From positions 76,160 to 140,159 of the forward strand of contig CAWETE010000001.1 of NCBI GenBank assembly GCA_963811895.1: a DNA stretch of 64,000 nt, read 5' to 3'. The stretch is from an uncultured Solirubrobacteraceae bacterium (GTDB taxonomy: Bacteria; Actinomycetota; Thermoleophilia; Solirubrobacterales; Solirubrobacteraceae). Below, in pieces: positions 2,846 through 35,414 of the stretch. The position numbers and the translations under genes are program-made. Position 1 is the first letter of the stretch. Every line of letters starts with the position of its first letter. The notes under the pieces were generated by a model. The model did no database searches. It was not told the DNA's origin and saw nothing but the letters and a program-made list of their open reading frames with translations.

Positions 2846-4495
2846 CTAGCGGACGACCCGGTCGCCGAGGTACGCGCCGAGCGCGGCCTTGCGGGCCTTG
2901 CTCAGCCGCTTGGCCTTACGGGCCTTCTTCGCGGACTTCTTCGCCGTGGTGGCGCCGCCGGCGAGCGTCTCGCGGAGGTTGCGATCCTCGGCCAGCGTCG
3001 CCAGCACGTGCGCGCCGCCGTCGGCCAACTGCTCCCAACCCTTGAGGTCGAGGTTGTCGATGTCGTCACCGGCCTGGTGGTAGTTCGGGTCGAACGCCAT
3101 ACCGGCCGTCCCGCCCCACTTGAGGGCCTGCGCCGGGGACTTCGCGACCTCCGCGCCGGAGAACAGGCCGCCCGCGGCGATCCCGTTGTCCTGGAACGGC
3201 TTGTAGTCGCTACGCCCGTCGAATGCGCTCGGGTCCGGGGAGATGCCCACGGAGCTGAAGTACTTCAGGAACACGGACTCGATGTACGCGGCGCCCGGGT
3301 TCACGGCCGGCGCCGTGGCCGGCGGGGGCGTGTCCGAGAAGTTGCCGTCGTAGACGAACTTCCCGTGGTTGGGCGAGGCCAGCATGTCGAAGTTGAGGTT
3401 GGCCGCGATCTTCGCGAACTCCTCATCCGAGATCGCCGCGACGTAGCGGGTCGCGCCCACCAGGCCGGACTCCTCGGCGCCCCACCACGCGAACCGCACG
3501 CGGTTCTCGGTGCGGATCCGCTCCTTGGCCATCCGGATCGCGAGCTCGAGGTTGAACGCCGAGCCGGAGCCGTTGTCGTTGATGCCCGGGCCCTCGACCA
3601 CGGAGTCGAGGTGCGAGCCGACGATCGTCACGTTGTCCGGGTCGCCCGAGCGGGTGTCGGCCAGGATGTTGGTCGACTTGCGCTGGTCGCTCTTGGCCTC
3701 GACGACGATCTGGCCCGTCGTGGGATCGGCCTCGCCGTTGAGCCGGTCGCCCTCGGCGTAGGAGATGCCGACGGCCGGGATCTCGACGTCGGGCGGCGTG
3801 GGCTGGCCATCCTGCGCCGTCTCGCCCAGCGTTCCGGCGACCACGCCCTCGTTGCCGGGCGTGCCCGAGTTGAAGATGATCGCGCCGACCGCGCCGGCGG
3901 CCTGTGCGTTGGTCACCTTCTGCGCGAACGGGCAACTGCCGCGCTGCATCAGGGCGATGTTGCCGGCCGGGAAGGCGGCGAAGTCGGCGGCCTCGCAGCC
4001 GGACGTCGACACGCGCTGCGCCGGGGTCGGGCTGAGATTGAGGTCGACCGCCGTGATCGTCGCCACGCCGGTGTCGCCGCTGGCCGAGTAGTTCATGGTG
4101 AGGAACTCGGTCTCGTGCGTGTAGTTCTTCGCGGTCGGCGAGACCTCGCGGAGCACGGGATCCGCCGTCTCCTCGAAGGTGACGAAGTCGAAGACCTGCG
4201 TCGTCGGGCGGTAGCCCGCGTCACGCAGCTTGGTGAGGACGTACTGCACGGACGCGCCGTAGCCCTGGAAGCCCGAGGCGCGGTTGCCGCCGTTCTCGTC
4301 GGCGATCATCTGGAACGCCTCGGCGTGCTTGAGCATGCGCCGCGAGGTGATCTCCTTGCGCAGCTCCTTCGAGGTCTTCGCGGCCTCGCTGGAGCCGTGA
4401 TGATGGTGGTGCTTCGACGGGTGCGCGGTCGCGGCGACCGGCGCACCGAGTGCGAAGATCGCGCCGGCCAGCGCGGCGCGCATGCGTACTGACAT
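2846..4495 (-). CDS. Secreted M28-family aminopeptidase with a PA (protease-associated) domain, S. griseus aminopeptidase-like
   Basis: 549 aa. Signal peptide MSVRMRAALAGAIFALGAPVAATA. Zn-ligand context (GSHLDSV, NDNGSGSA, WWGAEESGLVGA) typical of M28. Lys-rich C-terminal tail. ATG at 4495. Confidence 0.85.
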   Translation of the reverse strand: MSVRMRAALAGAIFALGAPVAATAHPSKHHHHHGSSEAAKTSKELRKEITSRRMLKHAEAFQMIADENGGNRASGFQGYGASVQYVLTKLRDAGYRPTTQVFDFVTFEETADPVLREVSPTAKNYTHETEFLTMNYSASGDTGVATITAVDLNLSPTPAQRVSTSGCEAADFAAFPAGNIALMQRGSCPFAQKVTNAQAAGAVGAIIFNSGTPGNEGVVAGTLGETAQDGQPTPPDVEIPAVGISYAEGDRLNGEADPTTGQIVVEAKSDQRKSTNILADTRSGDPDNVTIVGSHLDSVVEGPGINDNGSGSAFNLELAIRMAKERIRTENRVRFAWWGAEESGLVGATRYVAAISDEEFAKIAANLNFDMLASPNHGKFVYDGNFSDTPPPATAPAVNPGAAYIESVFLKYFSSVGISPDPSAFDGRSDYKPFQDNGIAAGGLFSGAEVAKSPAQALKWGGTAGMAFDPNYHQAGDDIDNLDLKGWEQLADGGAHVLATLAEDRNLRETLAGGATTAKKSAKKARKAKRLSKARKAALGAYLGDRVVR

Positions 4496-4517
4496 GTGAG
4501 GTCTTCCCCTCCCCAGG

Positions 4518-6450
4518 GTGGACGTTGTGCACGGCCCCTGCGCCCGGCGCGAACTCGTCAGCGCCGGTCTTGAGCCGATGCGGTTGGCGCGGATCGTAGC
4601 GGGCGCCCGGAGCGTCGCGCCGCAGTCAGAAGCTTGTCAGTGCATCAGGCACGCCCTCGCGACGGCTGAAGCGATGGCGCTGACGCCCGGGTTCTGGGAG
4701 GCTGGACGCGGCATCGCCATGCCGCCATCGCAGCCCATTCGCAGCGTCGCGATCGGCCGCAGCGTCATCACGGTCGGAGTGCCCGGCGGAACGCTGATCA
4801 CGGCCGGCACGCGGCTGTCCGCGGACGCCGAGACCGCGGATCCGCTCGAGCTCGCGGCGGCGCTGGCCGAGGAGGAGCCGCGCGAGACGATCGGCGAGCT
4901 CACGGAGCGCTCCGTAATGACCGCCTCCGAGGCCACGGACCGCGTGGAGCAGGCCGCGGAGCTGCTGCGGGACGCGCTCGCGGGTGAGCTCGTGGACCTC
5001 GCCCGCGCAGGCCAGGTCCTCGACGTCCTGCAGCGACTGGACGAGGACGGGCGCTACGAGGAATGGCTCCACTACGCGCGCTCGGTCCACGGCGTGCTCG
5101 TGCTCCTCAAGCGCTGGATGGAGCTCCTGAGGCTGCTGCGGACGCTCCTGCGCAGCGGCGCCGAGGTCCACGAGGCCGGCCGCGCGTGGGTCCAGCACGA
5201 GCTCGGCACCCTGCAGCTCGCCGCCGGCGACTCCAAGGAGGCGGCGAGGCTGCTGGAGCAGGCGCGGAGCACCAGGCAGCGCCTCCAGGACGGCGACGGG
5301 CTCGCCGCGACCGAGCAGAGCCTCGGCGTCCTCTGCCGCCAGCAGGCGCAGACCGGGTTCCTCGAGCGCAACCGCGGCCGGCTCGCCGTCGTGGCGGCCC
5401 TCGCCTTGCTGCTGCTCGCCGCGGGCGGGGTGGCCGGCGCGGTCTTCAACCCGTTCGGGTCGGATCCCGAGCCGCTCACCGTGGCGGTCCAGGGAGCCGG
5501 CGTGGTCACGGCCGCGGCGGCCGCCATCAGCTGCCCGGACCGCTGCGACGCCGAGCTCGACCACGGCTCCCAGGTGACGCTCACGGCCTCCGCCCGCCGC
5601 GGCTCGACCTTCGAGGGCTGGAGCGGAGACTGCGGCGGCGCGCAGCGCTGCCGCCTGAGCATGGACGGCCCGCGCACCGCCACGGCGCGCTTCGTCCGCA
5701 CGGCCGAGGCGCGGGCGGTCACCGTGCGCAAGGACGGCGACGGCGGCGGCCGCGTGACGAGCCCGTCCGGGATCGACTGCGGCGGCGCCTGCCGCACCAG
5801 CGTCGAGCGCGGGACCCAGGTGCGGCTGGACGCCATCGCCGACGAGGGCTCGACCTTCGAGGGCTGGACCGGCGCCGGCTGCGGGCAGGCCTCGCCGTGC
5901 CGGTTCACCGCGCAGGACGCGGTCACGGTCACGGCGCTGTTCACCGCGGAGCCCATCCCGGCCGGCGAGTTCCCGCTCACGGTGAGACGGAGCGGAGACG
6001 GCACCGTGACCAGCGAGCCGCCCGGCATCGACTGCGGAGACGACTGCGACGATTCGTTCGACGCGGACAGCGTGGTCGAGCTGTTCCAGGTGGCGGGCGA
6101 GGGTTGGGACTTCGCCGGCTGGGCCGGGGCCGGCTGCTCGGGCACGGACACCTGCCGCGTGCCGATGACGAAGGCGCGGGCGGTGAAGGCCGGCTTCGTT
6201 CCCGAGCAGCCCGTCCGGTTCACCCTGACCACGTCGACGACAGGCGCCGGCGAGCTCAGCCCGCCCTGCACCTCGGGCTGCGACTTCGACGCAGGCACCG
6301 CAGGTCCCGCTCACGGCCACGCCGGCCGGCGAGAACAACAGCGTGGCCTGGACGGGCTGCACGCCGGCGGTGCCCGGCGCCACCAGCTGCGAGGTCACGA
6401 TGTCCGAGAACCGCCAGGTCTCGGCGCGCTTCTTCTTCGCCGAGCCCTGA
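4518..6450 (+). CDS. Membrane-anchored protein with about six tandem divergent InlB B-repeat-like (Listeria-Bacteroides type) Cys-containing repeats; last repeat reached only after a +/-1 frame change near 6297
   Basis: Repeats of consensus G(D)G.VTS.P.GIDCG..C........V.L.A.A..GS.F.GW.G.GC.G...C between ~5460 and 6450. One predicted TM helix (AVVAALALLLLAAGGVAGAVF). Frame of ORF 4518..6476 loses the repeat pattern at ~6297. The shifted frame reads ...VPLTATPAGENNSVAWTGCTPAVPGATSCEVTMSENRQVSARFFFAEP* ending at 6450. Start position is uncertain (GTG 4518 or ATG 4674). Confidence 0.6.
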
Positions 6451-6498
6451 AACTCCTCAAATCCACTCAGCTTTGACCGAGTTTGTACGCTCTCTGCC

Positions 6499-6780
6499 AT
6501 GACGTACGTGATCGTGGGGAGCTGCGTGAAGGACGACTCGTGCATCGAGGTCTGTCCCGTCGACTGCATCCACCCCAAGCCCGGCGACCCCGACTTCGAG
6601 ACGGCCGAGCAGCTCTACATCGACCCTGCGCTGTGCATCGACTGCGACGCCTGCGTCGAGGCCTGCCCGGTCGACGCGATCTACGCCGAGGCCGAGACGC
6701 CGGAGCGGTTCGCGTACGCGAAGGACCTCAACGAGGAGTTCTTCGCCGAGCGCAGCACGATCGAGCGGACGGCCGCGTGA
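6499..6780 (+). CDS. Ferredoxin (2x[Fe-S], FdxA-like 7Fe type)
   Basis: 93 aa starting MTYVIVGSCV... with CIDCDACVEACP (CxxCxxCxxxCP) plus a second Cys cluster C9/C15/C19/C23. Its stop overlaps the next gene's GTG start (GTGA). Confidence 0.85.
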   Translation: MTYVIVGSCVKDDSCIEVCPVDCIHPKPGDPDFETAEQLYIDPALCIDCDACVEACPVDAIYAEAETPERFAYAKDLNEEFFAERSTIERTAA

Positions 6781-8111
6781 GGCCGCGGATCGCGATCGTC
6801 GGCGCAGGGCCCGCGGGCGCGTTCGCGGCCGCGGCGGTGCTGCGACAGGTCGGGAACGCGGAGATCGACCTGTTCGAGCGGCTGCCGACGCCGTGGGGGC
6901 TGCTGCGCGGGGGCGTGGCGCCCGACCACCAGGAGATCAAGCGCCTGCAGGACACCTTCGACCGCCAGACGCTCAGGCGCGGCTGCCGCTTCCTCGGCAA
7001 CGTCGAGGTCGGCCGGGACGTCACGCACGAGGAGCTGGCCCGCCACTACACGGCCGTGGTCTACGCGACCGGCGCGCAGACCGACAAGTCGCTCGGGATC
7101 CCGGGCGAGGATCTGCCCGGCAGCTGGGCGGCCACCGAGTTCGTCGCCTGGTACAACGGCCACCCCGACTTCCGCGACCTCGAGTTCGACCTCACGCACG
7201 AGCGCGCGGTGGTCATCGGCAACGGCAACGTGGCCGCCGACGTCACCCGCCTGCTCACGCGAAGCCCGGACGAGCTCGCCCGCACCGACGTCGCCGACCA
7301 CGCGCTCGAAGCGCTGCGACGCAGCGCGATCCGCGAGGTCGTCGTGCTCGGCCGGCGCGGCCCGGCCCAGGCGGCGTTCACCAGCGCCGAGCTGCGCGAG
7401 CTGGGTCACATGGAGGGTGTCGACCTGCGGGTGGATCCGGCGGAGGTCGAGCTCGATCCCCTCTCGGCCGAGTGGCTGGCGGACCAGGGCACCTTCACGG
7501 CCCGCAAGAACGTGCAGCTGCTGCGCGAGTTCGCCGAACGGCCGCCCCGGATCGACGCTCCGAGGCGCATCGCGTTGCGCTTCCTCGTGTCGCCCGTCGA
7601 GATCACGCCCGAGGCGGTCGTGGTGCGCCGCAACGAGATCGTCAAGGACGACCGCGGCCTGCTGCGCGCACGCGTCACCGACGCGCCCGCCGAGACCATC
7701 GAGGCCGGTCTCGTGCTGCGCTCGGTCGGCTACCAGGCCGTGCCGCTGCCCGGCGTCCCGTTCGACGAGCGCGCCTTCGTGCTGCCCAACGAGAGCGGCC
7801 GGGTGCTCGACGCGCCCGGCGTCTACACCGTCGGCTGGATCAAGCGCGGGCCGACCGGCATCCTCGGCACCAACAAGCGAGACGCCGAGGAGACGATCGC
7901 CTGCCTCGCGGAGGACCTGCGCGGCGGCGTCCTGCGCGAGCCGGAGGCGAGCGAGCCGATCGACGGCCTGCTCGCGGAGCGGAAGGTCGGTGTGGTCACC
8001 GTGGAGGGCTGGCGCGCGATCGACGGGCGCGAGCTGGAGGCGGGCCGCGGCGCGAACCGCCCCAGGGTCAAGCTGGCTTCGCGCGACGAGCTGCTGGCCG
8101 CGGCGGGCTAG
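6777..8111 (+). CDS. fprA: NADPH:ferredoxin (adrenodoxin-type) reductase FprA
   Basis: GTG at 6777 overlaps the ferredoxin stop. Begins MRPRIAIVGAGPAGAFAAAAVL (FAD Rossmann fold). A second NADP-binding GxGxxA motif (AVVIGNGNVAADV) follows. ~444 aa, adrenodoxin-reductase-like architecture. Confidence 0.8.
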   Translation: MRPRIAIVGAGPAGAFAAAAVLRQVGNAEIDLFERLPTPWGLLRGGVAPDHQEIKRLQDTFDRQTLRRGCRFLGNVEVGRDVTHEELARHYTAVVYATGAQTDKSLGIPGEDLPGSWAATEFVAWYNGHPDFRDLEFDLTHERAVVIGNGNVAADVTRLLTRSPDELARTDVADHALEALRRSAIREVVVLGRRGPAQAAFTSAELRELGHMEGVDLRVDPAEVELDPLSAEWLADQGTFTARKNVQLLREFAERPPRIDAPRRIALRFLVSPVEITPEAVVVRRNEIVKDDRGLLRARVTDAPAETIEAGLVLRSVGYQAVPLPGVPFDERAFVLPNESGRVLDAPGVYTVGWIKRGPTGILGTNKRDAEETIACLAEDLRGGVLREPEASEPIDGLLAERKVGVVTVEGWRAIDGRELEAGRGANRPRVKLASRDELLAAAG

Positions 8112-8894
8112 CGGCCCCAGCGGCCGCGATGGCGGCCGTCGCCGCGCTCGCCGTCCCAGTCGCCGCGATCGCGGTCGCCGCGGCCGTCGAAGTCGTCCTG
8201 GTCGGCGGCGGCGGGAGCCGGCGTCGGGGCGGGAGTCGCGGCGGGAGTCGGGGTCGGCTGCGGGACAGCGCTGCGCCGACGCTGGCTCACCTGACGCCAC
8301 GAGTGACGGCTGTTGTCCGAGTCGGACCGGCGCCAGCTGCGGCGGTCGTCGTCATCGTCGTCCTGCCACGAGGGCGAGGACGTCTCGGTCGTCACCTCGG
8401 TGGTCTGCCGGCTCGAGGTCGTCTCCGTCTGCGTGGTGGTGACGGTCGTCGCCTCGCCGGCGGTGGTCGAGACGGGCACGGCGGTGGCCACCGGCGCGGG
8501 GGTCGCGGTCGGCGTGACGACGGGGGCGGGGGTGGCCTGGACCGGCGTGGTGGCGGCGTGCCGGCGGCCGCGCGCGGCGCGGCGCGGGCTGAGCGGGGCG
8601 GGACCGGCGTCGGCGCGGCGCTGCGGAGCGGCGACCGGCCGGGCGGGGGGCGGGCACGCGGGCGCGCGCCGGGCGCGCGTCCTCGCTGCGGTCAGAGGGG
8701 GAGGCGAGCGTCACGGCGCCGTGGGTCACGCTCGCGACCTGGTCGCGCGGCGACCAGACGCCGGTGATCAGGCCGCTGGACAGCCAGCCGAGGACGAGGA
8801 TGGCGACGGCGAGCGTCGCGGCGGTGATGATGGCGGCGGAGAGGTCTCGGGGCAGCGTGAAGCGGCCGCGATCGAGAGACGGAGTCGAACGCAT
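8108..8894 (-). CDS. Hypothetical membrane-anchored protein with Pro/Thr/Ala-rich and acidic low-complexity tail; reading frame ambiguous, likely frameshifted
   Basis: ORF 8352..8894 encodes an N-terminal TM helix (AAIITAATLAVAILVLGWLSSGLITGV) but turns Arg-rich downstream. The overlapping ORF 8108..8491 encodes a PT/TT-rich linker and a DDDDDD/RD-rich tail. The two frames overlap at a G-run (8641-8654), a plausible indel site. Confidence 0.3.
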
Positions 8895-8943
8895 CTACCT
8901 AGAGATTCGGCGGCGGCGCCCGAGACTTGAGCTGTGAGGTCCG

Positions 8944-10932
8944 TCACAGTCGGCGCGCGGCCACCACGGCCGCGACCTGGTCCTCCCCGGACCGGGCGAC
9001 CAGCCGCACCGTGTAACGCCCGCGAGGCAGGCCTCGCAGAGCGAACCGGAACGACCTCCGGCTCGCGGCGAACCGCTTGACGACCTCACGCCCGCGCATG
9101 ACGGTGAGCGAGACCCTGGCGGGCGCGGCGAGGCGGTACGAGCCTGCCAGCGTCCGGCCGAACACCGGCCCCCGGAGGCCGAAGCCGCGCACCAGGCCGC
9201 AGCTCGCGCGCCGCCGATGCGGCGGCAGGACGCGGTAGCGCCCGTCCGTGCCGCGGCCGAGCACGACCACCCGGCGGTCGCCGGCCATCGAGAACCGCAC
9301 CACGTAGACGCCCGGGCGCGAGGCCCGCCACGTGAACGGCCCGCTGCGTCGCGCCACACGCCGCCCGTCGGACGCGCGCACGACGTCGACGCGCACCGGC
9401 CGCTCGACACGGCGCTCGAAGGACACCTCGACGCGCCGCCCGCGCGGCCGCGCCGACACCGAGGCGAACCCGTCGCGCTCCACGCACCCGCCGGCCCCGC
9501 GCGAGACCGGGAACGGCCACACGCCAGGATCCATGCGCAGCGCGTAGAAGCCGCTCGTGCCGTCCGAGTACCAGATCTCGCCGCGCTCGGGCGCGAACGC
9601 GGGCTGGGACATCGCGTAGTTCGCGCGCTCGTCGATGATCGGCGTGCCGGTCACCGTGATCGTCGACGGCGGCGCGACGTGGTAGGCGATCTCGCGCGGG
9701 TGCTCCGGATCGCGGATGTCGAACACCCGTAGCCCGGACAGGATCATCGAGCAGGCGAGGATGCCGGGCTCGGCCCGCTGCGGCACGTTGCAGTAGTGGC
9801 CGGCATAGCCCTGGACCGGGCTCTGGGCGCCCGGGTCGCCGGCGATCGCGGCGCGGTTCTCGGGCTGATGGACCGCGAGCCGGATGTTGGAGACCACGAA
9901 CGGGCGGCGCTCGTCGGAGATGTCGATGATCCGCGCCGCTCCCACGCGCGGCCCGTTCCCCGCCACGCCGCCCGACTCGCCCGACGAGTACTCGTCGATC
10001 TCCACCAGGTACGGCTTGCCGCCGATCGTCACCGGGATGGCGATCTGCGGGATCGTCATGTTCGACCACGTCAGCCGGCTGATCTCGCGCACCTGCGGAT
10101 TCGACTTGCGCGCCTGGACCTCCGAGAGGTCGATGATCACCAGCCCGTCGCCCGTCGCCAGGTACCCGCGGTTGCCGTCATCGGAGACCGACATGCCGTG
10201 GGTGTTGAACTGGCCCTGCCAGATCGGGCGCGGCAGGCGCGGGTCGCTCAGGTCGACCGCCGTCGTCTGGTCGGTGCTGATCGAGGTCGGGTAGAAGGTC
10301 TTGCCGTCCAGCGCCATCCCGCTCTCGTGCCCGAACACGCTCGCCGGAGCGCTGGCCATGAGCTCCGGGTGCCGGCAGTCGCGGCTGATGTCGTAGACGT
10401 CGACGACGCCGGGCGCGAAGGCCGGGTTGCCCATCACCGCCGCCAGCAGCCCGCGCTCGACGCTGATGTTCAGCGACTCGTGCGGCGTCTGCATGGCCGG
10501 CGTGATCAGCGTCGTCGTGTGGACCGGCTTCGCCGGATCGGTCATGTCGAGCACCGCGACGCCGGTCGGCTCCCCGCTGAGGCTCAACGCGTTGGTCGGG
10601 AACAGCAGCGTCGTGTCGTAGTACGCGCACTCGCGCCCGTCGCGGTCGACGTAGCGGTGCACGCGGAACCCGCCCGTCTCGCCGGCCTGCCCGATCACGC
10701 TCAGGTTGCAGCGGTAGCCCTCGGCGCCCGCGGGGACCCTGCCCTGCATGGGCCCCTCGGGCACGCTGCCCGGCAGGCAGTCGGCGCGCGGCGTGGCGAC
10801 GATCGGAGGCTCAGCCCGCTGCTGGGCGGCGACCGAGACCGGCTTCCAATCCGGCACGCGCGGTCCGCCGTCGTGCGCGAGCGCGGGCGCCGGCAGCGCG
10901 AGCGCCGCCAGCGCGACGATCAGGGCGCGCAC
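8944..10932 (-). CDS. Secreted hypothetical protein, beta-propeller-like (LVIVD-repeat-like) with C-terminal beta-sandwich domain
   Basis: GTG start at 10932 gives signal peptide VRALIVALAALALPAPALA. Globular, Cys-containing body, ~660 aa. The long ORF 8944..11100 only adds an Arg-rich N-terminus. Confidence 0.6.
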   Translation of the reverse strand: MRALIVALAALALPAPALAHDGGPRVPDWKPVSVAAQQRAEPPIVATPRADCLPGSVPEGPMQGRVPAGAEGYRCNLSVIGQAGETGGFRVHRYVDRDGRECAYYDTTLLFPTNALSLSGEPTGVAVLDMTDPAKPVHTTTLITPAMQTPHESLNISVERGLLAAVMGNPAFAPGVVDVYDISRDCRHPELMASAPASVFGHESGMALDGKTFYPTSISTDQTTAVDLSDPRLPRPIWQGQFNTHGMSVSDDGNRGYLATGDGLVIIDLSEVQARKSNPQVREISRLTWSNMTIPQIAIPVTIGGKPYLVEIDEYSSGESGGVAGNGPRVGAARIIDISDERRPFVVSNIRLAVHQPENRAAIAGDPGAQSPVQGYAGHYCNVPQRAEPGILACSMILSGLRVFDIRDPEHPREIAYHVAPPSTITVTGTPIIDERANYAMSQPAFAPERGEIWYSDGTSGFYALRMDPGVWPFPVSRGAGGCVERDGFASVSARPRGRRVEVSFERRVERPVRVDVVRASDGRRVARRSGPFTWRASRPGVYVVRFSMAGDRRVVVLGRGTDGRYRVLPPHRRRASCGLVRGFGLRGPVFGRTLAGSYRLAAPARVSLTVMRGREVVKRFAASRRSFRFALRGLPRGRYTVRLVARSGEDQVAAVVAARRL

Positions 10933-11405
10933 GCGTCGCCGTAGCCGGTCGGCATGAAGATGATCAGCCCGTCGCAGTCGCCGCGCTCTCCCGGGATCCC
11001 GGTGTCCGAGTAGCGGATCTCGTTCGCGATCACGGCGACCTGCGTGATGTTCCGGAAGCGCTTGGTCTTGAAGTCGACGTCCCGCTTGTTCTCGTGGCAC
11101 AGGCCGCGAGTTCTGCGGCGGATGTCCCGGGTGACGTCGTTGTACGAGACCTCGATCTCGAGCACCGCCGCGAACCCGTCGCCGGGGCAGATGTCGTTGA
11201 TGTACCCCTTCACGCGGAGGCGGCCGTTGTCGAGGAACCTCACCTTCCCCTTGGCCTTCGCCCTTCCCTCGGTCTGCGTCGTGCCCGAGAACAGGTCGAA
11301 GGGGACCGGCTCTCTGAGGTCTGCCTGCGCGGAGGCGACGCCGATCGATCCGGTGAGCAGGAGGGCGAGGCCGATGACGGCTGCACGGGTCCGGCGAGAG
11401 ATCAT
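10920..11405 (-). CDS. Small secreted hypothetical protein (161 aa)
   Basis: ATG at 11405. Signal peptide MISRRTRAAVIGLALLLTGSIGVASA. 4 Cys. Overlaps the downstream gene start by 13 nt, so it is probably co-transcribed. Confidence 0.55.
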   Translation of the reverse strand: MISRRTRAAVIGLALLLTGSIGVASAQADLREPVPFDLFSGTTQTEGRAKAKGKVRFLDNGRLRVKGYINDICPGDGFAAVLEIEVSYNDVTRDIRRRTRGLCHENKRDVDFKTKRFRNITQVAVIANEIRYSDTGIPGERGDCDGLIIFMPTGYGDACAP

Positions 11406-28293: not shown

Positions 28294-28450
28294 CGAACGT
28301 CAACCCCGGCTGGGTAGGGGAGCGGCGGGGTCGGCCGCACCGGCTTTCTTCATCGAATCCTGTCCCGGGGTCACTATCCGACCCCTATCCAGGATTCGAC
28401 GCCGCGGACGGCTCACCAGCTCCCCTACCCAGCCGCAGTTGACGTTCGTC
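28292..28450. repeat. 159-bp MITE-like element / giant hairpin with 32-bp near-perfect terminal inverted repeats and nested internal palindromes, bridging the stop codons of two convergent genes
   Basis: Left arm gacgaacgtcaaccccggctgggtaggggagc (28292-28323). Right arm gctcccctacccagccgcagttgacgttcgtc (28419-28450). 2 mismatches. Internal palindromes tcgaatcctg/caggattcga and ggggtc/gacccc. Arm ends coincide with TGA 28291-28293 and the TGA complement at 28449-28451. Confidence 0.6.
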
Positions 28451-29918
28451 AACGCATGGCTTCAAGCGGCGTGACCGGCTCCGCCGCCGCGCCGTGCTTG
28501 CGCCGCGCCACCCCGCTCGCCACCGCCGCATGGGCCACGGCATCGGCCACCGACTCGGCCACGCGGCGGTTGAAGACGCTCGGGATGACGTAGTCGGCGT
28601 GCAGCTCGTCCGGCGGGATGACCTTGGCGATCGCCTGGGCCGCGGCGAGCTTCATCTCCTCGTTGATCGTCCTCGCGCGCACGTCCAGCGCGCCGCGGAA
28701 GACGCCCGGGAAGGCGAGCACGTTGTTGATCTGGTTCGGGTAGTCCGAGCGGCCGGTGGCCATCACCGCCACCGCCTCGCCGACGTCCTCGGGCTGGACC
28801 TCGGGCACCGGGTTGGCCATCGCGAAGACGATCGCGCCGCCGGCCATGGTGCGCACGGCCTCCACGCTGAACGCTCCCGGGCCGGCCAGCCCCAGGGCCA
28901 CGTCGGCGCCGGCCAGCACGTCGTTCGCCGCCCCGCGGACGCCGTGCTTGTTCGTGCGCTCGGCCAACGACACCAGCTCGCCGTCCAGTCCGGGCTTCCC
29001 CGCGTACAGCGCGCCTTCGCGGTTGCAGACGATCACGTCGCCGAACCCCTGGGCGAGCATGATCTCGGTGCACGCCACGCCGGCGGCGCCCGCGCCCACC
29101 ACCACCGCGGTCACGTCGTCCGGCCGCTTGCCGACGAGCTTCAGCGCGTTGAGCAGCCCGGCCAGCACCACGATCGCCGTCCCGTGCTGGTCGTCGTGGA
29201 AGACCGGGATGTCGAGCTCCTCGCGCAGCCGCCGCTCGATCTCGAAGCAGCGCGGAGCCGAGATGTCCTCGAGGTTGATGCCGCCGAAGGTCGGAGCCAC
29301 GGCCTTGACGAAGGCCACGATCTCGTCGACGTCCTTGGTGTCGAGGCACAGCGGGAAGGCGTCGACGCCCGCGAACTCCTTGAACAGCATCGCCTTGCCC
29401 TCCATCACGGGCATCGCCGCCTCGGGCCCGATGTCGCCGAGCCCGAGCACCGCGGTGCCGTCGGAGACGACGGCGACGGTGTTGCCCTTGATGGTCAGCG
29501 CCCACGCCTTCGCGCGGTCGTCGTGGACCGCCATGCACACGCGGCCGACGCCCGGCGTGTAGGCCATCGAGAGGTCGTCGCGCGTCTTGAGCGGCAGCTT
29601 GCCGACCACCTCGATCTTGCCGCCCTTGTGCATGAGGAAGGTGCGATCGGAGACGCTGTCCACCTGCACGCCCTCGAGATCGCGTACCGCCCGCACGACG
29701 GCCTCGGCGTGGTCGCCGTCGGCGCACGCGACCGTCACGTCCCGCACGACCTGGCTGGACTCGACGCGCACGAGGTCGATCGCGCCCAGCATCGCGTCCG
29801 TGTCGGCGATCGTGTGGGCCACGCCCGCGAACGTGGCGCCGTGCTGCGGCATGCGGAGCCGCATGGTGAAGCTGTAGGACGCCGAAGGCTGGAGGCGACG
29901 CGGAGTCTCGTCGGACAT
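28449..29918 (-). CDS. NAD(P)-dependent malic enzyme (malate dehydrogenase, decarboxylating) with N-terminal ACT-like domain
   Basis: 489 aa. Malic_M NAD-binding domain ([16 protein letters not shown]) and malic N-domain (YTPGVGRVC). Confidence 0.8.
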
Positions 29919-29931
29919 GCGCCCGATTGTC

Positions 29932-31278
29932 TCAGGCAGGCGCGAAACGGACGTGCCGGCGGGCCGGTTCCGCCTCCACCAGCCGCACGATCAGCTCCTT
30001 GCCCGGCTCCAGCTCCCCCTCGCAGCGGGCGCGGACCGCCGGCTCGGCGAGCTGGATCTCGTGGTCGTCGATCACCGTCGCCGGGAACCGCTCGCCGACG
30101 TGCGGCGCGAGCACGAGCGCCTCGACGAGGTCGACGCACGCGCGCTCGAGGGCGCCGGCGGCGCGCCCACCGGCCGCCATCTCGGCCGGCACCGCGTCGA
30201 GCCCGGGGAGCTCCTCGCCGAGGCAGGCGGCGGTCGCGTAGCGGTCGGCCAGCCGCCGCAGCGGCGCGGTGACGTGCGCGTACGGCGCGCCCACTCCCGC
30301 GTGTCCGGCGCCGTCAGGCGGCGTCCCGTCGAAAGCGGCGTAGCCCGCTCCGCGCAGCAGCGTGGCCGCCTCCTCGAGCAGCGCGGCGTGGCGCGGCTGC
30401 AGCGGGTCGAGCGAGCGGATGAGCTCGCCCACCGGCTCGCGCCATTCGACGCCGAGCGCCTCGGCCACCCGCCGCAGCCGGGCGACCTGGTTCGCATCGG
30501 CCGGCGGCAGCGTGCGCAGCAGCCCGACGCCCCTCTCGATCATCAGCCCGGCCGCCGCCATGCCGGTCATCAGCGAGATCTGTGCGTTCGCCTCCTCGAT
30601 CGGCAACGGGCCGCGGTAGGCCAGCGCGTAGGCGCCGTCGCGCATCACGATCTCCTGGTCGGGGATCGGCAGGTTGATCGCGCCGCGCGCCCGCTCGCGC
30701 TGCTGCAGGAGCGCGCCGATCTCGGCGAGCAGGCGGATGCGCTCGTCGGCCGGAGGCGCCGAGGCGTAGGCGAACCGCTCACGGCTGCGGACGAGGGCGC
30801 GCTCGACGCCGAGCAACTGCCACGCGCCGTCCGGCTCGAGCGCGAACGACCAGACGACGGCCGGTCGATCCACGCCGGGCAGCAGGCTGGCCGCGCCCTC
30901 TGACAGCACGCGCGGATGCAGCGGCTCGTTGCCGTCGGGCAGGTAGCGCGTGACGACCCGCCGGTGGGCTTCCGCGTCGAGTGCCCCGCCGGGTTTCACG
31001 AAGGCGGCCACGTCGGCGATCGCATAGTCGACCCGGTAGCCGTCGCCGGAGCGCGACAGGCCCATCGCCTGGTCGAGGTCCATCGAGCCCGGCGGGTCGA
31101 TCGTGAACAGCTCGAGCTCGCGGCGGTCCTCCCGCGCCGGCAGCGGCGCCCGGGCCGCGTCCTCGGCCTCGCGCAGCGCCTCGGGCGGGAAGTCGCCCGG
31201 CACGTCGAGCTCCTCGCGGATGGCGGCGAGCCCGGCAGCGAGATCGGCGGGCACTTCAGGTGCGGTGAGGCGGCGCAT
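29932..31278 (-). CDS. RNB-domain exoribonuclease (RNase II/R family)
   Basis: ATG at 31278 ([13 protein letters not shown]...). RNB catalytic-domain motifs ([15 protein letters not shown], [22 protein letters not shown] equivalents). ~448 aa. Confidence 0.75.
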
Positions 31279-32704
31279 GGCCCTAGCATCGCCGCCGATG
31301 CTCGTCGCCGAACATGAGCTCGAGGTCCCGCTCGACCACGCCGACCCCGCCGGCGCCAAGATCACCGTCTTCGCGCGCGAGGTCGCCGACCCCGACGGCG
31401 CGGACCGGCCGTTCCTCGTCTACTTCGAGGGCGGGCCCGGCTACGAGGCGCCGCGGCCCACCCGCACGCCCGCCGAGCCCGGCTGGCTCGGCCGCGCGCT
31501 GAAGGAGTTCCGCGTCCTGCTGCTCGACCAGCGCGGCACCGGCCGCTCGGCGCCGGTCGCGGTGGCCGACGCCGACCGGCTGCGCCACTTCCGCGCCGAC
31601 TCGATCGTCCGCGACGCGGAGGCCTTCCGCGAGGCGCTCGGGGTCGAGCGCTGGAGCGTCCTCGGCCAGAGCTTCGGCGGCTTCTGCGTGACGACCTACC
31701 TCAGCCTGGCGCCCGAAGGGCTGCGCGAGGCGTTCATCACCGGCGGCCTGCCGCCCGTCGGGCGTCACGTCGACGACGTCTACACGGCCACATACGCGCG
31801 CGTGCGTGAGCGCACCCGCCGGTACTTCGCGCGCTACCCGCAGGATCGGCTCCCGCAGCGGGACGACCTCGTGCTTCCGAGCGGCGACCGCCTCAGCGCC
31901 CGGCGGCTCGCCCAGCTCGGCCTCGGGCTCGGCATGAGCGCCGGCGCCGAGCGTCTCCACCACCTGCTCGAGCTGCCGCCCGACTCCCCCGCCTTCCTGC
32001 ACGACGTCGAGGCCGCCACGCCGCTCGCCCGCAACCCGATCTTCGCCGTCCTCCACGAGGCCTGCTACGCCGACCGGGCACGCCTGCCCGCCTCCCCCTC
32101 GAATTCCCTTGTTCATACCCCCCTGATCACGCGCGACAACGTGCCCGCCAAGGTCAACGCGGTCTGCTACTTCCGCGTGATCGACGCCTCGCGGTCCGTC
32201 GTCGACGTCGAGAAGTACCTGCGCGCCACGTCGCAGATCGCTCAGACGACGCTCCGCTCGGTGCTCGGCAAGGCCGACCTCGACATGCTGCTGGGCGAGC
32301 GCGAGCAGCTCAACGAGGCGCTCCAGCACATCATCGACGAGCACACCGACCCGTGGGGGATCAAGGTCACGACCGTCGAGATCAAGGACGTCGAGATCCC
32401 GGTGGCGATGCAGCACGCGATGGCGCTCGGCGCGCAGGCGGAGCGCGAGCGGCGCGCGAAGATCATCCACGCGGAGGGCGAGTACCAGGCCTCGCAGCGG
32501 CTGCGCGACGCCGCCGACGTGATCTCCGGCAACCCCGCCGCGCTCCAGCTGCGCTACATGCAGACGCTGACGGAGATCGGGGCGACGCAGAACTCGACGG
32601 TCGTCTTCCCGCTGCCGCTCGACATGGTCAAGCCGTTCATCGAAGCGGCGGCCGACAAGTCGGTGGCGCAGAAGGAGAACGGACGTGAGATCGTCGTCCG
32701 ATGA
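31277..32704 (+). CDS. Chimeric ORF: N-terminal ~270 aa of an S33 prolyl aminopeptidase (proline iminopeptidase) fused in frame to the C-terminal ~200 aa of an SPFH/band-7 (stomatin/QmcA-like) protein
   Basis: PIP part: [10 protein letters not shown]...[12 protein letters not shown]...[11 protein letters not shown]...[10 protein letters not shown] (Ser nucleophile), but no C-terminal Asp/His region. From ~32104 the sequence ...[39 protein letters not shown]...[17 protein letters not shown]...[20 protein letters not shown] is the distal half of an SPFH domain with no N-terminal TM or first half. Junction at ccctcGAATTCccttgttcat. Start is ATG 31277 or 31298. Confidence 0.6.
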
Positions 32705-34514
32705 TCCTTCGTAGCGTCGTTCTCACCGTCGTCGCCGGGCTGCTCATCACTGCGCCGGCCGCCGCTTCGCAGAAGGTCCGCAGCTACCGCGTCAGCGAGG
32801 TGCGCGACCTCCTTGACCGCACCAAGGTGACCGTGGCGGGCGCCGCGATCGTGGAGGTCGACCACGCCGAGGTGGTGGCGACCGCCAACCGGCGCGCCGT
32901 GCGCCGCCTGCGCCGCGCGGGCTTCACGGTCGAGCGGATGTCCTCGGTGCGCAAGAAGCTGCGCCGGGCCGGCGGCCGCGCCGCCGCGTTCCCGCCGGCC
33001 GACTCCAGCTACCACGACTACGCCGAGATGGCGGCCGAGGTGAACGCCGTGGCGGCCGCGAACCCGAGCATCGTCTCCCGCGCTTCAGCCTCGGCAAGTC
33101 GTTCCAGGGCCGGGAGATCTTCGCCGTCAAGGTCTCCGACAACGTCGCCACCGACGAGAACGAGCCCGAGGTGCTGTTCACCGCCAACCAGCACGCGCGC
33201 GAGCACCTGACCGTCGAGATGGCGCTGTACATCCTGCAGCCAGCTCACCGCCGAGTACGGACCGACGCGCGGATCACCAACTTCGTCAACAGCCGCGAGA
33301 TCTGGATCGTCTCGATGGTCAACCCGGACGGCGTCGAGTACGACATCGCCACCGGCGGCTACCGGATGTGGCGCAAGAACCGCCAGCCCAACGCCGGGTC
33401 GACGCGGTCGGCACCGACCTCAACCGCAACTGGTCGTTCCAGTGGGGCTGCTGCGGCGGCTCGTCCGGCACGCTTCAGCTCGGAGACGTACCGCGGCCCG
33501 TCGGCCTTCTCGGCGCCCGAGACGCAGCGTGGTGCGCAACTTCGTCAACTCGCGCGTGGTCGGCGGCGTCCAGCAGATCAAGGCGCACATCGACTTGCAC
33601 ACCTACTCCGAGCTGATCCTGTGGCCGTACGGCTACACGACCGCCAACACGACCTCGACGCTCAACGCCAACGACCGCAACGCGCACGCCACGCTCGGCC
33701 AGAACATGGCCGCCACGAACGGCTACACGCCCGAGCAGGCGTCCGACCTCTACATCGCCGACGGCACGATCAACGACTGGATGTGGGGGACGTACAAGAT
33801 CTTCAGCTACACGTTCGAGATGTTCCCGACCGGCTCGAACCCCGGCTTCTATCCGCCCGACGAGCAGATCGGCCCGCAGACCTCGCGCAACCGCGCCGCG
33901 GTCCTGCTGTTCCTCGACGCCTCCGACTGCGTCTACAAGGTGATCGGACTGGGAATGCGGCGGTCCGGCGGCCGAGAGCGTCTACTTCGACAACTTCGAG
34001 GCGGCCAACGGCTGGACGGCGCCCGCGGCCGGTGACACCGCGACCGCCGGCCAGTGGGTGCGCGGCAACCCCGCCGGGACGAACAGCGGTGGCGTCAAGC
34101 AGCTCGACGCCACGGTGAGCGGGAGCAACGACCTCGTGACCGGCGCGTCCGCCGGCGCCGGCGGCGGGTGACTTCGACGTCGACGGCGGCGTGACCACCA
34201 TCACGTCGGGGCCGATCGCGCTCAACCAGTTCGGCAGCTACACGCTGACGTTCTCGCAGTACCTCGCGCACGGCTCGAACTCGAGCAGCGCCGACTACCT
34301 GCGGGTGGGCGTGCAGGTGGGCACCACGACGACGTGGGTCTGGACCCGCACCGGCGCGGCCGCCAACCTGAACGGCGCCTGGAGCACCGCCTCGGCGTCG
34401 CTCAACCAGTTCGCCGGCCAGCCGACCGTCCGGCTCGTCGTGCAGGCCGCCGACGCGTCGACCGCCAGCCTCGTCGAGGCCGGGGTCGACGACGTCAGGA
34501 TCACGGGGAGCTAG
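32701..34514 (+). pseudogene. M14-family zinc carboxypeptidase (carboxypeptidase T-like, secreted) disrupted by at least eight 1-nt indels
   Basis: ATG 32701 (overlaps the previous stop, ATGA). Signal peptide [23 protein letters not shown]. Homologous segments are scattered over all three + frames: ...[20 protein letters not shown]..., ...[24 protein letters not shown]..., ...[27 protein letters not shown]..., ...[20 protein letters not shown]..., ...[19 protein letters not shown]..., ...[22 protein letters not shown]..., and the C-terminal domain ...FDVDGGVTTITSGPIALNQFGS...VDDVRITGS*. Example: gtctcccgcGcttcagcc where removing one g restores VSRFSLGKS. Confidence 0.7.
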
Positions 34515-35342
34515 CTAGCGGTTCGTAACCACCATCGCCGCCATCGCCTGCATCCCGCGCAGGTTGGGATGCAGCGGGGCGGCGGCGTTGCCCGGGATGT
34601 AGGGCTCCACCCAGCGGGTGCCCGACCCGGCGCACGCGTCGCGGCCCGCGCTGGCGCCGTAGACGTCGACGATCGTCGCGGCATTGGCGGCCGCCTGGGT
34701 CGCGAGCATGGCGTTGAGCTGCACCTGCTTCTCCCTCAGCCACCTCACGTCAGCGGGCGTGACGGGCATCCGCGGCCAGCAGCCGTTGCCGCTGTGGGGG
34801 AAGATCGCCGAGTAGTTGAGGACCAGCACCTTCGCGAGCGGCGAGCGGGCGTGGATGCCCTGGAGCACGGCGGCCACCTTCGGCGCGGTGGCGGCGATCC
34901 GCGCGCTGATCTGGTCGCCCCCGCGCGTGTAGCGGTCGCGGCACGGCGAGCCGAACGGCAGCGCGGAGACGCAGTCCAGGGCGAGGTCGGAGAAGCCGAT
35001 GTCGTTGCCGCCGATGCTCAGCGTCACCAGTCGCGTGTCGGCCGACAGCGAGTTGAACTGCGGCGGATTCGGGCCGGGCGAGACGTTCTGCGGCGCCGTC
35101 ATGTGGTCGGTCCGCGCGCCGCTGCAGGTCGCGTCGCCGTACTCGGCGAAGGCCAGCGTGCGCTGGGCGATGCGGCCGTAGTTGTTGCTCGACTTCAGGC
35201 AGCCGAGCGGCGCGAGCGGGTTCGGGATCAGCGGTCCCGCCGCGTACGAGTCACCGAGCGCCGTGTACCGAGGCGCCGCCTCCGCCGTTCCCGCGAAGAC
35301 CGCGGCCACCGCCATCACTGCCAGCACGACACGCACGCGCAT
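34515..35342 (-). CDS. Secreted SGNH/GDSL-family hydrolase (lipase/esterase)
   Basis: ATG at 35342 with ggggaggga RBS. Signal peptide MRVRVVLAVMAVAAVFAGTAEA. GDSY block (YTALGDSYAAG). ~275 aa. Confidence 0.8.
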   Translation of the reverse strand: MRVRVVLAVMAVAAVFAGTAEAAPRYTALGDSYAAGPLIPNPLAPLGCLKSSNNYGRIAQRTLAFAEYGDATCSGARTDHMTAPQNVSPGPNPPQFNSLSADTRLVTLSIGGNDIGFSDLALDCVSALPFGSPCRDRYTRGGDQISARIAATAPKVAAVLQGIHARSPLAKVLVLNYSAIFPHSGNGCWPRMPVTPADVRWLREKQVQLNAMLATQAAANAATIVDVYGASAGRDACAGSGTRWVEPYIPGNAAAPLHPNLRGMQAMAAMVVTNR

Positions 35343-35414
35343 GCTCCCTCCCCCTACGAAGTGACGTTTGGCGCGAGCGTATAGCGCGCAGGGCGCGACG
35401 GGAAGGACCGTGAC

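Follow-up and report, generated by a model that had tools for sequence, protein, structure and literature searches.

The 64-kb stretch of contig CAWETE010000001.1 analyzed here (64,000 nucleotides, hereafter the window) contains an open reading frame (ORF) on the forward strand (31277..32704; 475 residues, from an ATG at 31277 to a TGA stop at 32702-32704) in which the beginning of an S33 alpha/beta-hydrolase gene runs without a stop into the end of a stomatin (SPFH/Band 7) gene. The original prediction had described this ORF as an in-frame chimera and its composition bears this out: hydrolase residues 1-266 are followed by a 16-residue linker (267-282) and a stomatin remnant (283-475), and both Pfam domains are partial. 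Abhydrolase_1 matches residues 67-195 over profile positions 18-142 of 245 only, while Band_7 (PF01145) matches residues 281-402 over positions 49-175 of 176, scoring 77.2 bits against a gathering cut-off of 23.6. NCBIfam models for prolyl aminopeptidases and HflK/C yield sub-threshold matches only. Both domains are thus cut inside their folded cores. Two of the three frames that enter the stomatin remnant stay open, each for about 190 codons, so that a long ORF across the junction is in itself unremarkable; entry into the correct stomatin frame is a 1-in-3 event, the same odds that had been put forward at the outset.

In close relatives the two halves belong to separate genes. Among the related loci compared (L numbers; soil-metagenome contigs and GTDB genomes, 174 fetched in total), the ancestral arrangement is a co-directional cluster of S33 hydrolase, nfeD, stomatin and M14 peptidase genes. 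Six loci (L001, L083-L086 and L088) encode a hydrolase of 380-389 aa, an NfeD protein of 150-155 aa and a stomatin (Band_7) of 263-267 aa, with an 18-22 bp spacer between hydrolase and nfeD and a start-stop overlap between nfeD and stomatin in all six. An M14 peptidase gene (599 aa) comes next in L083 and L084, the only loci of the six that reach that far, and in both it overlaps the stomatin gene. The genes are separate and intact, with unchanged order and flanks, in L001, L083-L086, L088, L114, L137 and L153.

Alignment of the window with these loci (blastn) breaks in two at the junction. Window positions 28453-32074 correspond to L001 3149-6771 and positions 32126-33157 to L001 7840-8860; against L083 the collinear blocks are 31297-32074 and 32122-35385, and L084 is likewise collinear. 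L088, the closest relative at the hydrolase, aligns at 31207-32074 (94.7%) and 32122-32344 (98.2%). L088 positions 869-1943 (1075 bp) are absent from the window, which has 47 bp at 32075-32121 instead. The absent segment begins at hydrolase codon 267 and runs through codon 389, the 18-bp spacer and the complete nfeD gene to stomatin codon 74. Landmarks on either side of the junction lie 1078-1120 nt apart in the eight relatives with contigs long enough to include both, versus 68 nt in the window. The original prediction had proposed that a deletion truncated one gene at its 3' end and the next at its 5' end, with a mis-join in assembly as the alternative, and had suggested that intact relatives be used to size the deletion. 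Sized against L088, the loss is 1075 bp; a segment of about 1.07 kb is indeed missing between collinear flanks, but the two genes were not adjacent, since a complete nfeD lay between them.

Hydrolase homology stops at 32074 and stomatin homology restarts at 32122, and the 47 bp between them (32075..32121, CGGGCACGCCTGCCCGCCTCCCCCTCGAATTCCCTTGTTCATACCCC), which are read in frame on the forward strand as the linker, match neither gene in comparisons with L001, L083 and L088. The change from hydrolase to stomatin had been placed at around 32104, as a clean join; the sequence named as the join lies inside this 47-bp filler. The filler has no significant similarity to the deleted segment (three relatives, both strands), to the rest of the window or to the 174 fetched loci, and a 23-mer from it is absent from GTDB genome contigs and JGI metagenome contigs. 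Searches of viral contigs gave one 19-mer match in a low-GC phage contig, a chance match since it does not extend, and the plasmid search gave nothing significant (GC-rich matches, E ≥ 0.9). The filler has no significant similarity to the sequencing adapters compared with it and contains no promoter-like or terminator-like site; no Rfam family was found anywhere in the window.

Three other origins for the junction were considered and rejected. A homology-mediated deletion is contradicted by L088, where neither a direct repeat nor microhomology is found at the deletion end points, and this favors illegitimate over homologous recombination. An engineered in-frame deletion with an EcoRI scar finds no support in the frequency of GAATTC, which occurs twice in the window versus about three times expected from base composition by our own estimate; moreover the deletion affects three genes, its end points fall within domains, and the relatives are uncultured soil metagenome-assembled genomes. 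Lastly, GC content drops after 32100, as it might at the edge of a horizontally acquired right half, but the stomatin and M14 genes are inherently lower in GC, and the flanks are collinear with those of relatives on both sides, arguing against such an acquisition.

The reading we favor, at a probability of roughly 0.6, is that the ORF is a chimeric pseudogene produced by a recent illegitimate deletion-insertion in the hydrolase-nfeD-stomatin-M14 cluster. A single lineage-specific break would have been repaired without homology, presumably by end joining or another form of illegitimate recombination, with the removal of about 1075 bp and the 47-bp filler left in place. The stomatin remnant would then have fallen into the hydrolase frame by chance (1 in 3), and it is because the remnant lies in that frame that gene callers report a 475-aa "protein". 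In Actinobacteria error-prone end joining is known to yield deletions and occasional insertions (PMC6989103).

The 5' remnant (31277..32074, forward strand) retains codons 1-266 of about 389 and is 93.2% identical in amino acid and 94.7% in nucleotide sequence to the hydrolase P0002 of L088. The HGGPG-like oxyanion region and the GQSFGG nucleophile claimed in the original prediction are both present (GGPG at residues 52-55 and GQSFGG at 130-135 of the chimera) and are invariant in the hydrolase alignment; the retained nucleophile is Ser132 of GQSFGG. The full-length P0002 can be aligned along its whole length with Arabidopsis DM3/PAP2 (PDB 8JGN, E=7e-93), a hexameric prolyl aminopeptidase with the catalytic triad S214/D462/H490 (bioRxiv 10.1101/2024.10.28.620575). 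From this alignment the bacterial triad is predicted to be S132, D339 and H367 (P0002 numbering), where D339 (YADDMYV) and H367 (NEYDHDG) align to DM3 D462 and H490. Both lie beyond residue 266, in the deleted part, so that the window copy holds only the Ser of the Ser-Asp-His triad, in line with the claim that the C-terminal Asp and His are missing. The description of this half as a typical S33 proline iminopeptidase holds for the S33 hydrolase fold family but not for the classical enzyme: with TIGR01249 (classical proline iminopeptidase), whose cut-off is 259.75 bits, the chimeric ORF reaches no more than 44.3, and it resembles instead the long DM3/PAP2-like enzymes. Because the intact P0002 likewise falls under the TIGR01249 cut-off, the label "prolyl aminopeptidase" depends on homology to DM3, and this activity is predicted, rather than established, for the bacterial DM3-like members. 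Some hydrolase orthologs begin at a downstream Met (MLVAEHE, 31298) rather than at the ATG used here.

The 3' remnant (32122..32704, forward strand; stomatin codons 75-267 plus the stop) is closest to the stomatin of L137, with 98.3% nucleotide identity over 583 nt, 98.4% amino acid identity over residues 75-267 and no indels. It had been called the distal half of an SPFH gene; it is distal, but with 193 of 267 residues (72%) it is considerably more than half. Residues 1-74 of the ortholog (MTAVLVFVFVLVLVAATLAAMS...DVPPQN) have no counterpart in the window, confirming the predicted loss of the N-terminal membrane anchor and removing the first SPFH strands as well, while the coiled-coil and C-terminal regions are kept. 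An intact relative, P0122, matches a chain of the stomatin cryo-EM cage (9oh9, E=5e-76) and also QmcA (8Z5G); the part of it equivalent to the remnant aligns to stomatin cage structures as far as residue 250, and its alignment to the crystal structure of the PH1511 stomatin core (3BK6) begins at residue 56. A further stomatin homolog, P0124 (306 aa), contains an internal tandem duplication of about 48 residues (alignment A3, columns 401-460). In the relatives NfeD has a membrane part, and its C-terminal domain matches the structure of the "stomatin operon partner protein" (PDB 3WWV). No nfeD was found within the 64-kb window by tblastn with the L088 protein (best E=0.52). The fusion product is probably non-functional, since its hydrolase half would be without the final core strands and two of the three catalytic residues (Asp and His), and its stomatin half without the anchor, the first SPFH strands and the NfeD partner.

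The fused allele is unique. When the whole ORF was searched against about 5.8 billion protein clusters, the only protein carrying both PF00561 and PF01145 among the matches listed was P0001, the window's own product, a singleton cluster from this same contig (336,510 bp). The next matches to the whole ORF (at most 93% identity) are hydrolases of 380-420 aa that cover 54-59% of the query, and the C-terminal part searched alone retrieves stomatin-like proteins of 260-300 aa with 95-97% identity. When hydrolases and stomatins are aligned together, MAFFT forces their unrelated C-termini onto each other. The 21-mer left of the break was followed through 86 sequences (80 readable metagenome contigs and six loci already known): 84 of the 85 other metagenome contigs that carry it continue as an intact hydrolase, the sole exception being L104, a 65%-identical outlier that continues differently, and the filler occurs in none of the 85. 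Nor was the junction found in any other public contig searched among GTDB genomes and metagenome contigs. Recurrence of the fused architecture elsewhere had been set beforehand as the test able to refute a chimera, and its outcome was negative.

These data bear directly on the idea that the ORF represents an ancient and genuine two-domain architecture, a Rosetta-stone fusion of alpha/beta hydrolase and SPFH domains. The open reading frame taken alone is compatible with such a fusion, but close relatives have separate genes that match the halves at 93% and 98% identity, and also have the missing parts and nfeD between them, and no second protein with both domains is among the matches listed. 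In 80 of 80 GTDB genomes with a homolog (at most 69% identity) the hydrolase is full length (about 380-400 aa), with no SPFH gene beside it. A natural fusion is expected to recur in other genomes and to respect domain boundaries; the product here is a singleton and both of its domains are cut internally. We regard an ancient architecture as having next to no chance of being correct, refuted as it is by the singleton status, the full-length homologs and the intact loci of relatives.

Neither remnant has decayed. With substitutions polarized using L083 as outgroup, the window branch of the hydrolase remnant carries 10 synonymous and 8 non-synonymous changes (ratio of non-synonymous to synonymous rates, dN/dS, of about 0.29), compared with 10 and 13 in the intact sister L088, and the stomatin remnant carries 3 synonymous and no non-synonymous changes. 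There are no indels in 1381 nt (798 nt left of the junction and 583 nt right of it). The substitution counts are thus no worse than those of the intact sister, from which it follows that the event is very recent, or is not real, or, least likely, that the product is under selection. Under the deletion-insertion reading the event would be recent.

Selection would make the ORF a functional neo-fusion, a soluble, catalytically dead hydrolase scaffold bearing the stomatin coiled-coil as an oligomerization tail. In favor of this, its 475 codons are intact beside a gene with at least six frameshifts (P of about 0.03 by our own arithmetic, if frameshifts are neutral and uniformly distributed), dN/dS is low in the hydrolase part, none of the three changes in the stomatin part is non-synonymous, and the native start codon and upstream region of the hydrolase are retained. 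However, a low dN/dS is expected for a recent event, since most of the divergence predates it, and the frameshifts in the neighboring gene may be technical. With both domains cut inside their folded cores, two residues of the catalytic triad (Asp and His) lost along with the membrane anchor and NfeD, and no recurrence in the other genomes or metagenomes searched, a functional neo-fusion is highly improbable. That the chimera is expressed and selected as a new gene born of a deletion, with purifying selection and not a recent origin accounting for its unbroken frame of 475 codons, has only a very slim chance of being true.

The flanks of the chimera are formed by genes shared with the relatives. 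Upstream, two reverse-strand genes served as synteny anchors: a malic enzyme gene (28449..29918), common to L001, L082 and L083-L086, and a divergent RNB (RNase II-like) gene (29932..31278), which L001 also has upstream of its hydrolase (Pfam RNB). Provided that the ortholog-based starts are right, the start codons of the RNB gene (Met, 31278-31276) and the hydrolase (ATG, 31277-31279) overlap in a CATG palindrome. The window, L001 and L088 have the RNB gene between the malic enzyme gene and the hydrolase gene; L083-L086 lack it. The hydrolase adjoins nfeD-stomatin-M14 in the closest clade only (hydrolase nucleotide identity of at least about 79%, L153 being the most distant member); in more distant Solirubrobacterales, Chloroflexia and other genomes (L002-L081) it occurs without these genes. 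L082 (ENA ERZ25039555 contig_10263, 4004-10964) lacks both the hydrolase and the RNB gene; there nfeD and stomatin come immediately after the malic enzyme.

Downstream, the M14 carboxypeptidase gene, the last of the ancestral cluster (32701..34514, forward strand), begins with an ATG that overlaps the stop of the fusion ORF (ATGA). Tblastn with the intact 599-aa L083 ortholog finds it split over frames 3, 2, 3, 1 and 2, and at least six small frameshifting indels separate it from L083, at approximately 33070 (+2), 33236 (+1), 33402 (-1), 33473 (+1), 33528 (+1), 33952 (-2) and 34160 (+1). With the indels removed the gene has no internal stop and keeps its Zn-binding HAREH motif. Inside a canonical motif (33236-33262), a +1 and a -1 indel no more than about 25 nt apart seem, on our own reading, to compensate each other, and divergence from L137 is patchy. 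These frameshifts could be consensus noise or very recent decay. Segmentation by the phase of GC content at third codon positions (GC3) places the densest frame switching of the window in the M14 region and a second dense zone at 55.4-58.5 kb. The latter holds a patatin/DUF3376 gene (55440-58530, forward strand) scattered among three or more frames (Patatin profile positions 1-69 in ORF 55440-55958 and 144-191 in ORF 55469-56560, DUF3376 in ORF 57176-57880), in which the GC3 phase flips about six times; its closest database homologs, mostly from ENA assemblies, are also fragments (138-407 aa). L082, an independent ENA contig, shows about 45 small indels versus L083 in its M14/GDSL region and none in its stomatin, and the indel positions 33236, 33473 and 33952 (window coordinates) are common to L082 and the window. 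Noise in strain-variable genes next to clean conserved genes suggests consensus errors of long-read metagenome assembly. Such errors do not create a 1-kb deletion, yet they lower trust in the structural details of the contig.

The frameshift-riddled M14 and patatin genes lend weight to an explanation in which the organism has an intact hydrolase-nfeD-stomatin cluster, and the gap and filler were introduced by a single backbone read, aberrant or rare, or by a badly closed gap, and could not be mended by polishing. In long-read assemblies polishing mends small errors but not kilobase-scale structural differences. A singleton allele, a filler that matches nothing and pristine flanks 98% identical to intact alleles would all be expected of such an artefact. 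The small-indel clusters resemble consensus noise, given the absence of stops after correction and the compensated pair, and the indels of L082 (which bears a "contig_N" style name) and the fragmentary DUF3376 homologs show a similar pattern in other assemblies. However, mis-joins normally link unrelated loci or sit at repeats, whereas here the two sides belong to one locus, 1 kb apart and equally oriented, and the end points are free of repeats. The junction also lies outside the noisy zone, its 798 nt to the left and 583 nt to the right being free of indels, and the filler is unlike the adapters compared. An assembly or read artefact, or a rare variant fixed by the assembler, is a possible but distinctly less probable account of the junction, to be held tentatively.

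Several observations weigh against the deletion-insertion we favor. The fused allele has been seen once, in one assembly, on a contig with local quality problems (the M14 frameshifts, with no stop once corrected, and the frameshifted patatin/DUF3376 gene). For bacterial end joining, 47 bp of filler is a long insertion, and searches of the window, the fetched loci, and the genome, metagenome, viral and plasmid collections turned up no donor for it. The undecayed remnants, finally, fit an artefact equally well. In either case the two remnants and the lost nfeD do not amount to a new kind of protein; they represent a one-off hybrid gene, almost certainly dead, or an assembly error. The biological weight is small, that of one more deletion that has fused two gene remnants and, in one soil Solirubrobacterales-like lineage, destroyed a stomatin-NfeD operon. 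For annotation the consequences are more tangible: the 475-aa product sits in public databases as an ordinary protein and should be flagged as a pseudogene or possible mis-assembly, and the local frameshift clusters call for caution with the other gene models of the contig. If the junction is real, the 47-bp filler would record an illegitimate repair of a break in a deep actinobacterial lineage, which is of modest interest.

Chimeric ORFs and pseudogenes arising from intergenic deletions are a general phenomenon in bacterial genomes. The window locus shares with deletion-made chimeric ORFs its collinear flanks, internal loss, lack of end-point homology, fused frame and restriction to a single lineage (cf. 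PMC6989103), but differs from bacterial end joining as usually described, with additions of a few nucleotides, in its 47-bp filler. Compared with DM3 (At3g61540, PDB 8JGN/8JGM), the window copy retains most of the lid as well as the GGPG region and the nucleophile motif GQSFGG, but ends at the residue aligned to DM3 position 373, so that the segment with D462, H490 and the C-terminal trimer-interface residues (bioRxiv 10.1101/2024.10.28.620575) is deleted. The third comparison is with the prokaryotic stomatin-NfeD (STOPP) operon (Pyrococcus horikoshii PH1511/PH1510; E. coli QmcA/YbbJ). The relatives conform to it, with an nfeD for 150-155 aa whose stop overlaps the stomatin start, and the C-terminal 193 residues of the window ORF are 98% identical to such a stomatin. 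The window itself differs in having no nfeD and a stomatin without residues 1-74, the remnant being translated only as the tail of another gene. The locus is the wreck of a stomatin-NfeD operon and not a member of that class.

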